In this document: in pieces, positions 6,895 through 11,157 of the stretch
How positions within the stretch are numbered: the first letter of the stretch is position 1
How the letters are laid out: each line of letters starts with the position of its first letter
DNA from: Limisalsivibrio acetivorans
GTDB lineage: Bacteria > Chrysiogenota > Deferribacteres > Deferribacterales > Geovibrionaceae
Length of the DNA stretch: 32,000 nt
NCBI RefSeq assembly: GCF_000421105.1
Contig: NZ_ATWF01000001.1
Location: 328,668-360,667 of the forward strand
Reading direction: 5' to 3'
The notes under the pieces: generated by a model
Told to the model about the DNA's origin: nothing
The model's database searches: none
Seen by the model: only the letters and a program-made list of their open reading frames with translations
Program-made: the position numbers and the translations under genes

Positions 6895-7020
6895 TCTCAT
6901 AAATGAATTATCTCAATTAAAATAACACACTATACAAAATAGTCCATCTGTTAAAGTAATAATCATTGTAAAGCATTTAGTATCCTCATTATTAAAGTTT
7001 GCATTTAATTAACGAAAAAC

Positions 7021-7051
7021 TTGACTTTATCACGATGTTTTAATATATAAT
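7021..7051 (+). promoter_or_regulatory. Sigma-70-like promoter for the XRE-cupin regulator
   Basis: TTGACT (7021-7026) is followed after 17 nt by TATATA (7044-7049), or after 19 nt by TATAAT (7046-7051). Confidence 0.5.
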
Positions 7052-7065
7052 ATAAATTAAGAAAA

Positions 7066-7623
7066 ATGAATATAGCGAGGAAGCAAATGGGCTATGGAAC
7101 AAAACTCAGGGAGATTCGTAAGAAGCTGGGGATGACACTCGAGGATATTTCCCAGAAAACCGGCTTTACCAAGAGCTTTATAAGCCAGATTGAGAATGGA
7201 AAGAACTCCCCCTCTATCGCATCCCTTAAAAAAATATGCTATGCACTCGGCACAACCATAAGCGAGCTCTTCGAAGACGAACGAAATATTGTTAACATCT
7301 TTAAGTACGAGGACTATAACGTACTTAAAAACAAAAGTATAACTATGACCTTCCCCGCATCCAAGCTGGTTAACAGGAAGCTTGAGCCGATTATTATCGA
7401 GCTCGACCCCTACAGCGAAACAGGCTCAGAGAGCTATCAGCACATCGGTGAAGAATTCGGCTACGTGCTTGAGGGTGAGATGAGTGTTGTTATCGGCAAC
7501 GAGGAGCATAACCTCAAACAGGGTGAGTCCATATACTTCAGTTCAAACCTTCCTCATAGGATAAGAAACCGGAATGATAAGCCCGCAAAGGCTTTTTGGG
7601 TGGGTACGCCGCCTAGCTTTTAA
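7066..7623 (+). CDS. XRE-family HTH transcriptional regulator with C-terminal cupin domain
   Basis: The HTH_3 segment is LREIRKKLGMTLEDISQKTGFTKSFISQIENGKNSPSIASLKKICYALG. The cupin segment is HIGEEFGYVLEGEMSVVIGNEEHNLKQGESIYFSSNLPHRIRN. ATG 7087 (MGYGTK), preceded by GAGGAAG, is probably the true start. Confidence 0.85.
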   Translation: MNIARKQMGYGTKLREIRKKLGMTLEDISQKTGFTKSFISQIENGKNSPSIASLKKICYALGTTISELFEDERNIVNIFKYEDYNVLKNKSITMTFPASKLVNRKLEPIIIELDPYSETGSESYQHIGEEFGYVLEGEMSVVIGNEEHNLKQGESIYFSSNLPHRIRNRNDKPAKAFWVGTPPSF

Positions 7624-7639
7624 TATGATTTGGGAAAAA

Positions 7640-8026
7640 TTCCATCCATGGAAGCCTTTGATTTATCTGGGAAATTCATCATCCTGAGAATTTCCCTGCT
7701 GCTACGCTTGGCAAAGCCTTCGCTTCGCTTACTTCCATATATTTTATGAAGCGGAGCTTAATAAAATATATTTCAGGGCTCCCATCCATGGGAGCCTTTT
7801 ATACATCAACCTCAAATTTTTTTTCTAAATGGGTTTTTAAGGGGTTCCTAAGGGGAAAGTTTTCCCTAAAAATTTCCCCTTAGTCTTAATTTTATCTATG
7901 GAGTTTACCATCCATGGAAATCCCATTGTTGTTCGGGCAGGGAAACCCTGCCCTCTCGCACTTCCGGCTGCGTCAGATCAGCAGAGCTGTTCTTCCTTTC
8001 GCCTACAGAGCCAACATCCGTGTTGG
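7640..8026. repeat. Series of inverted-repeat hairpins with covarying stems and a conserved ATCC(A/G)T centre
   Basis: Four hairpins share the conserved centre: 7640-7653 TTCCAT-CC-ATGGAA, 7777-7796 GGCTCCC-ATCCAT-GGGAGCC, 7904-7920 TTTACC-ATCCAT-GGAAA (imperfect), and 8011-8026 CCAAC-ATCCGT-GTTGG. They are interleaved with 7669-7696 GGGAAATTC-(10 nt)-GAATTTCCC, 7848-7883 CTAAGGGGAAA-(14 nt)-TTTCCCCTTAG, and 7935-7953 GGGCAGGG-AAA-CCCTGCCC. Confidence 0.75.
7777..7802 (+). terminator. Possible intrinsic terminator for plus-strand transcripts (XRE-cupin gene)
   Basis: A 7-bp GC-rich stem GGCTCCC/GGGAGCC with loop ATCCAT, followed by TTTTAT. It is the same structure as one hairpin of the array, so its role is ambiguous. 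Confidence 0.35.
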
Positions 8027-8430
8027 ACTTAATTAATCTGGGAAATTCCATAGATTTAATCGGTAGCTATAACGTTTACACTTGAGAGAAAACAACGTGA
8101 GACGTGAAGCGGTTTTTCGTTAAGCAGGTGACTAGTAGCCAATAATCTGTTTAGCTAATAACCCTCTTAATCTTCCCCGAATGTTTTACAGCCGAATAAG
8201 CTCTTTTGGAACCGCCCGGAAGTTTTGGCCGCACGTGACAGACGAGGTAATCTTAAATATTGAATACATTCATGAATGATATGCGTTTACACTCCTCAGC
8301 ATCAGCAAAACTTCAGGTGGAAAAAGAGTGAAATGAGGGCACCGCCATCACTTACGAATTTATGAATATAAATGAGTAACAATGGGGGCTGGAAAACCCT
8401 GAGGGAATAGTTTTGCATACTTTTGCGACA

Positions 8431-8486
8431 AAAGTATGGCGTGCTTTAGCACGAAACACATAAATATGTGACTTATTTCGAATATT
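8431..8486. repeat. Direct repeat copy 1 (~55 nt)
   Basis: aaagtatggcgtgctttagcacgaaacacataaatatgtgacttatttcgaatatt aligns by eye at roughly 80 percent identity with 8576-8630. Confidence 0.7.
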
Positions 8487-8497
8487 AGTATGAAAGC

Positions 8498-8538
8498 AAA
8501 AAAACGCAGGGAACTTTTTAGGGAACAAAGTTACCCGC
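8498..8538 (-). terminator. Possible intrinsic terminator on the minus strand
   Basis: The minus-strand RNA reads GCGGGUAAC-(15 nt loop)-GUUCCCUGCG followed by UUUUUUU (A-run 8498-8504 on plus). The stem has one mismatch or bulge. It lies about 210 nt downstream of the stop of the 8751-9440 gene. Confidence 0.4.
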
Positions 8539-8575
8539 ACCCCTCAAAAACCCTTATTAGGAATAAATTGCGCTT

Positions 8576-8630
8576 AAAGATATGGCGTGTTTTAGCGGAA
8601 AACATTAATCTGTGAATTATTTCGTATTCG
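8576..8630. repeat. Direct repeat copy 2 (~55 nt)
   Basis: aaagatatggcgtgttttagcggaaaacattaatctgtgaattatttcgtattcg is homologous to 8431-8486. A third partial copy of the tail (cattatcgaatatgaaatacaaaaac) lies at 8691-8716. Confidence 0.7.
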
Positions 8631-8750
8631 ACGATGTAAAGAATAAGACTAAGGGGAAGTTTTCTCTGAAGATTACCCTTCGTTAATTTTCATTATCGAA
8701 TATGAAATACAAAAACTAGCGTCTGAGTTAGATTATAAGCATAAAATATA

Positions 8751-9440
8751 TCAATCCCCTGTCTGCCGTCTGCTGTAGTCCCTCAGCACGGCTGAGAAAC
8801 GTCCTTGCTCATCAGTAACATTCTGGCGGATTGGCACAAAACCCAGCTCATCCTCTGCTATCCAGATAGCGCCCTTGTTTACCTCACTGATAAATGTGAG
8901 CATGCAGACAGTTGTGAAATCGGATCCTAGTCGGCCAGACTCGTTTTTGATATGTTTGAATGTGTAGTTTAGTAATTTAAACTCTTCGAGCTTGAATATT
9001 CTGTAGTCCTTTGCTTTGCCCGTTCCGCATAGTTCACTGCCGGGTGTACCCACACTGAGGCTGTCGTATTCATCGGGCTTGAGTGTCTTTGAACCGCCCG
9101 GATTGGACTGAACCAAGTAGTTTGCGCCCTCACGTTCTGCTGTAACAGAGCGTTCATCACCATCCAGCCTGAGGCTTCCGCTGTAGCGGAGAAGACCGTT
9201 TTCATCGAAGACGCTTTTCTCCTCAAGGAAGAAGCTGATCTCGTTGAACATATCCTTCTTTTTTACGTTTATTACTTTTTCGTGACGGACTATGCCATCT
9301 TCTCTGGAGCGCTTGAAGGTGAATGAGCCGAGATGCACATTATCTGAGTATACATCGTAGGTGGATTCGATAACAACATCCTCCTCGGCGAAAAGGGGGA
9401 GGGCGATGAACATAACGATAATAAACAGTAATCTTTTCAA
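8751..9440 (-). CDS. Hypothetical exported protein
   Basis: A 229-aa ORF with a TTG start 8 nt after GGAGG. It has an N-terminal signal peptide (MKRLLFIIVMFIALPLFAEE). I recognise no family motifs. Confidence 0.6.
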   Translation of the reverse strand: MKRLLFIIVMFIALPLFAEEDVVIESTYDVYSDNVHLGSFTFKRSREDGIVRHEKVINVKKKDMFNEISFFLEEKSVFDENGLLRYSGSLRLDGDERSVTAEREGANYLVQSNPGGSKTLKPDEYDSLSVGTPGSELCGTGKAKDYRIFKLEEFKLLNYTFKHIKNESGRLGSDFTTVCMLTFISEVNKGAIWIAEDELGFVPIRQNVTDEQGRFSAVLRDYSRRQTGD

Positions 9441-10749: not shown

Positions 10750-10897
10750 ATAAAGTCCTCCTGATTTCTATATTCTGAACTGTTCTTATTATCTTATCTG
10801 AACACAATAATATTTTTTATCCATATGTTCAATTTAAAAAAAGATGATTCGTGTCCGCCATTAGGTTTAATAACGTATATTCATGTATGTGGGTATT

Positions 10898-10922
10898 AAA
10901 AAAGGCCGCCTTAACAGCGGCC
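10898..10922 (-). terminator. Intrinsic terminator of the rubredoxin gene
   Basis: The minus-strand RNA reads GGCCGC-UGUUAAG-GCGGCC followed by UUUUUU, 19 nt after the rubredoxin stop. Confidence 0.7.
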
Positions 10923-10940
10923 TTGGGATTTCTTTACTGA

Positions 10941-11099
10941 TTAGTCCATCGGGTCGAAGTTGTCTTTGCCTACTCCGCACTCGGGACATACCCAGTCTTC
11001 GGGTATATCTTCGAACTTGGTACCTGGCTCAACACCGCCGTCCGGATCGCCTTTTTCGGGGTCGTAGATCCATCCGCAAACATTGCATACGTATTTCAT
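10941..11099 (-). CDS. Rubredoxin
   Basis: Hand translation gives [52 protein letters not shown] (52 aa), with the two CxxC pairs. AGGAGG lies 5 nt upstream. It is below the ORF-track length cutoff. Confidence 0.9.
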
Positions 11100-11129
11100 T
11101 GCTTCCTCCTTAACTGGAATCTCTATTAA

Positions 11130-11157
11130 AATATATCCTTTAAATGCGACAAGTCAA
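11130..11157 (-). promoter_or_regulatory. Sigma-70-like promoter for the rubredoxin gene
   Basis: On the minus strand, TTGACT (rc of 11152-11157), a 16-nt spacer, then TATATT (rc of 11130-11135). The -35 overlaps the stop region of the upstream DHH gene. Confidence 0.45.

Follow-up and report, generated by a model that had tools for sequence, protein, structure and literature searches.

An intergenic gap in Limisalsivibrio acetivorans as a probable repeat island built from three dispersed, structure-bearing families

REP/BIME elements and REPINs, known from enterobacteria and pseudomonads, are short imperfect palindromes in intergenic DNA, often located after convergent genes, which gather into mosaic clusters in both orientations and serve as insertion targets for particular insertion sequences (IS). 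The BOX elements of Streptococcus pneumoniae and the NIME/Correia elements of Neisseria form a modular, non-coding hairpin vocabulary of variable copy number and order, with no transposase of their own and with RNA folding that could affect neighbouring genes. These REP/BIME, BOX and NIME mosaics are the closest known systems to, and share these traits with, a 1127-bp gap at positions 7624-8750 of the window, that is, the whole 32,000-nucleotide stretch of Limisalsivibrio acetivorans DNA analysed here (positions refer to the window unless a contig, C1 to C3, is named). The gap separates convergent genes for an XRE-HTH/cupin protein and a DUF6134 protein. It is probably a repeat island in which copies of three families, termed E, T and M5, are pieced together, all of them confined to the lineage, non-coding and structure-bearing, with a role at the RNA level. 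Intergenic mosaics in both orientations were found, in ∼79 islands, and a cognate RAYT was not. Unlike REP/BIME elements, the units are longer (141 and 488 nt), the loops rather than the stems are conserved, and the family spans genera with covarying stems. From BOX and NIME/Correia elements, which are unrelated in sequence, the islands differ by a defined GGA motif in the E loops, and the 488-nt, multi-helix M5 appears to be an element without known counterpart. On sequence comparison, conserved loops of the CsrA type would set the E family apart from known mosaics.

The first, sequence-only reading of the window had described a 1.1-kb gap between two convergent genes, holding a single open reading frame (ORF) of at least 60 codons, more AT-rich than its neighbours and saturated with repeats, and all of this was borne out. 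The ORF list and Pfam place the flanking genes directly at the two ends of the gap (Table 1), and GC content falls from 0.45-0.51 in these genes to 0.33-0.44 in the gap. The single ORF, a 62-aa frame at 8352-8540 (-), lies inside the M5 repeat. A repeat search of the gap yielded nine direct-repeat families and ten inverted pairs, and blastn against the organism's own genome (2.97 Mb, four contigs, 99.99% complete, Deferribacterota) returned 289-343 matches at ∼79 places, many of them islands of 0.5-1.7 kb; the upper count of 343 is far beyond chance. Match boundaries pile up at fixed positions, which divides the gap into modules. About 900 of the 1127 bases belong to the three dispersed families, which fill ∼80 intergenic islands, and a k-mer census assigns ∼86-90 kb (3% of the genome) to multicopy DNA of this type, in 200-240 stretches. 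The three families accumulate in intergenic DNA, above all between converging genes. For annotation, the gap is thus part of ∼90 kb of repeat-built DNA and not a unique regulatory locus, and this DNA explains most of the large gene-free gaps in the genome, as well as the breaks of its assembly at repeats. An identical sequence of 639 bases, including E copies, stands at three contig ends (C1:1-639, C2:584897-585535 and C3:1-639), so it was these repeats that interrupted the assembly, and a single replicon may underlie C1 and C2.

No known family accounts for this DNA: no known IS, miniature inverted-repeat transposable element (MITE) or Rfam family matches, so the kind of hit that, by the earlier reading, would have taken away its novelty did not occur. 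ARAGORN detected no tRNA or tmRNA in the gap, and a scan of 7000-9400 against Rfam (release 15), with E values up to 10, gave chance matches only, none near the gathering score. The top match, Phe_leader, reached 31 bits against a threshold of 55 and arose by chance from a hairpin plus U-run. The sequence-only reading had raised three options, namely genes for non-coding RNA, the decayed remains of a mobile element, or a site acting in cis; what stands of this is that the gap is non-coding, built of repeats and predicted to form RNA-like folds, while the idea that it is special to this locus does not, as it is an ordinary member of ∼80 similar islands.

Table 1. Features of the gap and its two flanking genes, in window coordinates.
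Feature	Position	Strand	Basis and remarks
XRE-type HTH plus cupin regulator	7066-7623	+	ORF list; Pfam HTH_3 1e-15, Cupin_2 2e-19; stops at island
Truncated start of a further E copy	7640-7660	-	Reads GGCUUCC-AUGGAU-GGAA; HP1-type hairpin, 3' arm cut short
Full E copy (141 nt, four hairpins)	7662-7802	-	Alignment A2, covariance model R2, nhmmer, fold
T element (∼55-nt family)	7826-7888	-	nhmmer of M5 tail, contig positions 336498-336560 (-); inverted repeats I1, I2, I4, I6
E-family variant, 'D' subfamily (diverged)	7889-8034	-	nhmmer E profile 7893-8029, E = 4e-6
M5 leader	8039-8065	+	Last 22 nt (8039-8060; HP4 3' arm plus tail) of a D-type E copy, same orientation as M5
M5 (488 nt)	8066-8553	+	nhmmer; consensus fold; model R1 287 bits
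M5 core domain (245 nt)	8169-8413	+	Consensus fold
M5 hairpin	8415-8438	+	IS-B insertion site in other copies
M5 hairpin CGUGC-UUUA-GCACG	8440-8453	+	
T element as M5 3' end	8500-8553		
Decayed partial duplicate of M5 3' part (profile 359-460)	8569-8670	+	nhmmer, contig positions 337236-337337; direct repeats D2, D5
Unique AT-rich spacer	8671-8750		Adjoins DUF6134 stop codon; coverage 1 in self-BLAST; no copies elsewhere
DUF6134 protein	8751-9440	-	ORF list; Pfam DUF6134 1.5e-6, just above cut-off; stops at island

The E family is the most abundant of the three, with 169 nhmmer matches in this genome, 135 of them near full length. Covariance model R2 recovers at least 147 copies here and 4-34 copies in 13 of 15 other genomes of the bacterial family, and E is common to three other genera by model search. 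The full copy in the gap scores 154 bits with model R2 (C1:336329-336468) and 132 bits with nhmmer, and its minimum free energy of -52.9 kcal/mol (z = -5.5) belongs to a fold that agrees with the family fold. Its first hairpin (HP1) pairs 7777-7783 with 7790-7796 around the minus-strand loop AUGGAU (7784-7789), and its last (HP4) pairs 7669-7677 with 7688-7696 around the minus-strand loop UCAGGAUGAU (7678-7687); 7803-7825 is the usual upstream linker of this copy. The truncated copy beside it shares direct repeat D4 with 7782-7807, and five genomic matches begin at its first base, 7640. The limits of the D variant are set by ∼50 genomic matches that begin at 7887-7889 and end at 8022-8034. It folds at -49.1 kcal/mol (z = -2.95), with an HP1-type hairpin CCAAC-ACGGAU-GUUGG (loop 8016-8021) followed by a GGGCAGGG-UUU-CCCUGCCC hairpin, and with an HP4-type hairpin whose loop, AUGGAU, lies at 7910-7915.

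Covariation shows the predicted folds of E and M5 to be kept by compensatory changes and the E loops to keep their GGA across genera. Among 40 E copies from other genera, double changes occur in all 38 modelled pairs, with pairing in 89% of cells compared with 62% in shuffles and ∼40% when partners are slid; the alignment had been fitted to the model, which biases the result in its favour. The first loop reads (A)NGGA(U/C) and the last C-A-(N)-GGA-(U/C)-G, on stems of at least ten sequences; GGA is retained in 38 of the 40 HP1 loops and in ∼36 of the 40 HP4 loops. Multiple GGA motifs are thus displayed in hairpin loops, as A-N-GGA-Y in HP1 and CAGGAUG in HP4. The same loops emerge within this genome when hairpins are chosen by their GCTTCC stem alone, with no selection on the loop: AUGGAU occurs 26 times, AAGGAU 24, AGGGAU 8 and ACGGAU 4. 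E hairpins are almost all intergenic, 54% of them between convergent genes. Local tandem arrays of E-family units were also observed at C1:563372-564395, 477287-477680 and 2131707-2133364, with periods of ∼249, 129 and 416 nt, respectively; the unit boundary of the 129-nt array falls inside the HP1 loop.

These loops resemble binding sites of the CsrA family. CsrB of E. coli has CAGGAUG as its repeat, and hexaloops of the form A-N-GGA-U or C-ANGGAU-G are the RsmE/hcnA-type site. The genome encodes fliW and csrA side by side (C1:1683490-1684028), and the leaders of four flagellin genes (C2:462035, 417351, 414090 and 574926) carry stem-AAGGA(A/C/U)-stem hairpins, followed 15-30 nt downstream by a GGAGG Shine-Dalgarno sequence in three of the four. 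By analogy, these leaders look like the classical two-site CsrA operator, an arrangement known from hag of Bacillus, where it mediates control by CsrA. The loops of E match the flagellin-leader hairpins and so resemble sites that this organism's CsrA is expected to use, from which we infer that E may be connected with CsrA. Acting as RNA, E would offer CsrA-type sites in its C-A-N-GGA-U-G and CAGGAUG loops, and transcripts that carry E in its GGA orientation (minus strand at this site) could bind or titrate the protein. E is like CsrB/CsrC and RsmX/Y/Z in combining several GGA motifs in hairpin loops with the presence of csrA. Unlike these RNAs, it has no Rfam match to Csr or Rsm families, no promoter or terminator was seen that would mark a discrete small RNA, and ∼170 dispersed copies stand against one to eight genes. 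We know of no RNA sponge or other RNA antagonist established for a FliW-type CsrA system, the type present in this host, and a literature search on CsrA with REP, and on the bacterial family with its genomes, found nothing relevant. Almost every member of the phylum has CsrA, which makes a comparison of CsrA presence with E presence uninformative. A 1-kb repeat island begins ∼10 nt after the csrA stop codon; fliW, csrA and this island together span C1:1683490-1685163.

M5 corresponds to a much longer element, with 22 near-full copies and 38 of at least 200 nt by nhmmer (32-38 by model R1), which fall into subfamilies of 16 and 6 copies that are ∼70-75% identical to each other. Its core is predicted to fold into a three-way junction, in which the closing helix is joined by two arms, one of them long and variable at its tip. 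The 50 core pairs are formed in 99% of cells, compared with 36-52% when partners are slid; 18 of them show double changes, and none of 500 shuffles reaches the covariation score. Those helices that are predicted on both strands have 36 wobbles on the plus strand and 14 on the minus strand, and one-sided changes comprise 36 plus-strand G-U pairs against 10 non-pairs. This plus-strand G-U excess makes the plus strand the likely RNA. In paired columns, private substitutions are rarer by a factor of 2.2, and in conserved blocks by a factor of ∼4, a pattern that argues for selection or gene conversion acting on individual copies. Model R1 found no M5 outside this genome, among 15 genomes of the family and 67 of the phylum. 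A 19-base invariant M5 pattern occurs in two viral and one metagenome contigs, none of which matches the model; these are chance hits.

All but one of the 38 M5 copies lie in gaps between called ORFs: 16 in convergent gaps, which make up 14.5% of all gaps, 14 antisense and 4 sense in tandem gaps, and 3 in divergent gaps. In 14 of the 18 tandem gaps, the T end of M5 faces the incoming gene. In most of 16 M5 copies aligned with their flanks, a full D-type hairpin or module lies directly 5' on the same strand. In the present gap, a 22-nt D-type remnant (8039-8060) lies beside an inverted full copy, which accounts for inverted pair I3 (with 7889-7910). The decayed duplicate downstream of M5 includes a degenerate T-like palindrome. 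Many 5'-truncated copies have one common 3' end. A replichore bias of M5 was considered and dropped after positions and strands were inspected by eye.

In length, copy number, conserved structure, intergenic position, and truncated 5' and common 3' ends, M5 resembles the HEARO/omega RNAs and ORF-less group II introns. Unlike these, it has no IscB/TnpB-type or reverse transcriptase gene and no Rfam match; moreover, unlike group II introns, it has no GUGYG or domain V features, and several of its truncations are explained by IS insertion. Long and RNA-like, M5 has good support from covariation, many copies and no known relatives or partner protein, and elements of this kind have earlier led to new ribonucleoprotein systems. 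A segment of M5, ACUCCUCAG (ACCUCCUCAG in subfamily 2), is anti-Shine-Dalgarno-like. Its CCUCAG is complementary to M5's own CUGAGG, both sides being invariant, and a pseudoknot or an alternative pairing is possible (8292-8299 and 8400-8407).

T is the shortest of the three families and the sole piece of the gap that BLAST detects in relatives, namely in a sister genus. The copy next to the full E copy is bounded by a pile-up of match starts and ends at 7826 and 7888, and its palindrome spans 7848-7883. This copy and the 3' end of M5 are one element in opposite orientations. On the plus strand, the first forms an 11-bp stem followed by UCUUAAUUUUAUCU and looks like a terminator for the XRE-cupin transcript; on the strand of its incoming gene, each T is predicted to fold as a hairpin followed by a U-rich tail.

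Taken together, these features suggest how such an island might work. The two outward-facing, terminator-like palindromes, one for each incoming gene, would let the island be tolerated at this site. M5 would be a plus-strand structured RNA, selected copy by copy, usually placed after a D-type E unit and ending in T; our preferred guess is that this RNA is non-coding and shares both spread and expression with the E and T repeats, rather than being a relic. The elements may have moved through an unidentified transposase or by recombination between repeats.

The alternative that survives best is purely selfish DNA, which we judge unlikely though it retains real weight. On this view, all three families would be of a REP-, MITE- or BOX-like kind. 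Their hairpins would count solely as single-stranded or cruciform DNA substrates for an unidentified transposase or recombinase, and the GGA loops would be the site that this enzyme recognises, with no role for RNA or CsrA. Several findings weigh against an RNA-level role, and a number of them fit the selfish alternative well. Distant E copies are 96-99% identical, which indicates recent spread as mobile DNA needing no host function, and the local tandem arrays of E also fit this account. Hardly any copies lie outside intergenic DNA, and they are concentrated where genes converge, the places at which insertions are least harmful; E numbers ∼170 here compared with 0-34 in relatives; and element orientations are mixed within islands. 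A consensus scan of 7400-9000 found no sigma-70-like promoter, where 3.4 were expected by chance, so independent transcription of E (-) or M5 (+) at this site is unsupported. In convergent gaps, the GGA strand of E is more often antisense than sense to the incoming gene (31:20 and 39:21), which means that read-through mRNAs would mostly carry AUCCAU and not GGA loops, and most hexaloops in the island downstream of csrA likewise read AUCCAU on the csrA strand. The missing promoter, the antisense GGA strand, the mixed orientations and the AUCCAU loops after csrA argue against an active sponge at the locus. The compensatory changes in M5 fall mostly between its two subfamilies, leaving few independent events per pair, and T folds no better than shuffled sequences do, with z of about -0.7 to -1.1, so a terminator function for T is plausible only.

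Other evidence runs against purely selfish DNA. One-sided changes are mostly G-U on one strand, in M5 as given above and in E by 73 to 26 on the GGA strand, which fits RNA better, and the E loops match the genome's own flagellin-leader hairpins. No mobilising enzyme of the three kinds sought is encoded: searches of this genome for TnpB (PF07282), Y1/RAYT (PF01797) and reverse transcriptase (PF00078) gave zero matches each, and control genomes respond to the PF01797 search. Neither terminal inverted repeats nor target duplications were seen for M5 in the 16 copies aligned with flanks. The multicopy transposases that were seen are of IS30 and IS3 types only; the ends of these elements are unlike the repeats, which they use as targets.

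The resident IS elements illustrate this targeting. IS-A (IS30 family, 1074 nt, 334-aa transposase) is present in 11 copies of 99.8-100% identity (C1:146348-147421 and ten others), at least six of which lie in or beside repeat islands; three copies interrupt T palindromes, and in two of these cases the insertion points in the T loop coincide to the base. IS-B (IS30 family, 1118 nt, 345-aa transposase) has five copies of 99.5% identity (C1:575642-576759 and four others), and four of the five share a single insertion point, in the loop that the M5 hairpin GCAUACUUUU/AAAAGUAUG forms, with M5 flanks that are only ∼90% identical. This suggests a structure- or sequence-specific target for IS-B. Two IS30-family elements landing in M5 and T hairpin loops would offer a clean natural case of structure-targeted insertion. 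Inverted IS3-type fragments flank a subtilase (Peptidase_S8) gene in a composite-transposon-like arrangement (C1:1830447-1833646), which sits at position 286 of an M5 copy. These IS insertions explain several of the 'truncated' M5 copies. The possibility that the repeats are MITEs of a resident IS was examined for three IS types and rejected: the ends of IS-A and IS-B are unlike E, T and M5, both elements lie inside the repeats, and the only matches of their ends outside their own copies are to repeat DNA flanking the IS-B query copy.

Coding potential in M5 would open a different explanation, in which M5, instead of being a non-coding RNA, would encode a small protein or a type I toxin-antitoxin pair like the ∼500-bp LDR/hok-type repeats of E. 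coli; this is very improbable. On the minus strand, a frame of 38 codons is uninterrupted in 13 of 16 subfamily-1 copies, as is the same frame in 4 of 6 subfamily-2 copies, and the size and the multicopy, IS-interrupted pattern are like those of hok and ldr loci. However, the peptide is not conserved between subfamilies (∼5 of 15 identities, at the C-terminus), whereas RNA pairs are kept by double changes; it has no clear hydrophobic helix, and no other frame is common to both subfamilies. The 62-aa frame of the gap is unbroken in only 8 of 22 M5 copies, and its protein is not conserved.

A locus-specific non-coding RNA gene or cis-acting site serving both flanking genes, which a large, ORF-free, hairpin-rich gap could accommodate, has next to no likelihood and is largely refuted by the dispersal of the families, since ∼80% of the gap consists of copies found at ∼79 other places with unrelated neighbours and self-BLAST leaves only 8671-8750 and a few short linkers unique. 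The earlier reading had asked whether the island is conserved at its syntenic position or scattered, and scattered is the answer. In the nearest relatives found, Seleniivibrio and Deferribacteraceae metagenome-assembled genomes with FprA proteins 73-74% identical, the DHH-FprA side is kept but synteny is lost immediately beyond FprA, next to which both flanking genes of the gap (XRE-cupin and DUF6134) are missing.

Within the favoured reading, a repeat island with a role at the RNA level, a bolder joint proposal can be put forward only tentatively, as a possibility that falls well short of probable: that two undescribed RNA classes meet here. E would be a family-wide mobile 'CsrA-site cassette' that places or titrates CsrA in bacteria with the FliW-CsrA system, and M5 a new large structured RNA, functional in ∼32 dispersed copies without a dedicated protein gene, whose invariant single-stranded CUCCUCAG (anti-Shine-Dalgarno-like) could pair with mRNAs or with M5's CUGAGGG. 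The CsrA-site-like loops of E, family-wide and amplified ∼170-fold in one species, offer a testable route to RNA control of CsrA outside gamma-proteobacteria.

Repeat islands also adjoin two CRISPR arrays (C1:1360905-1364373 and 1372962-1374887), whose repeat we take to be type I-F-like, and one leader-side region carries an IS-A copy and an M5 copy. Elsewhere in the window, 10750-11153 is a 404-nt gap without an ORF of at least 100 aa, located between FprA-like and DHH-family genes and outside the repeat families; the description of the rest of the window as otherwise gap-free was accordingly too strong.

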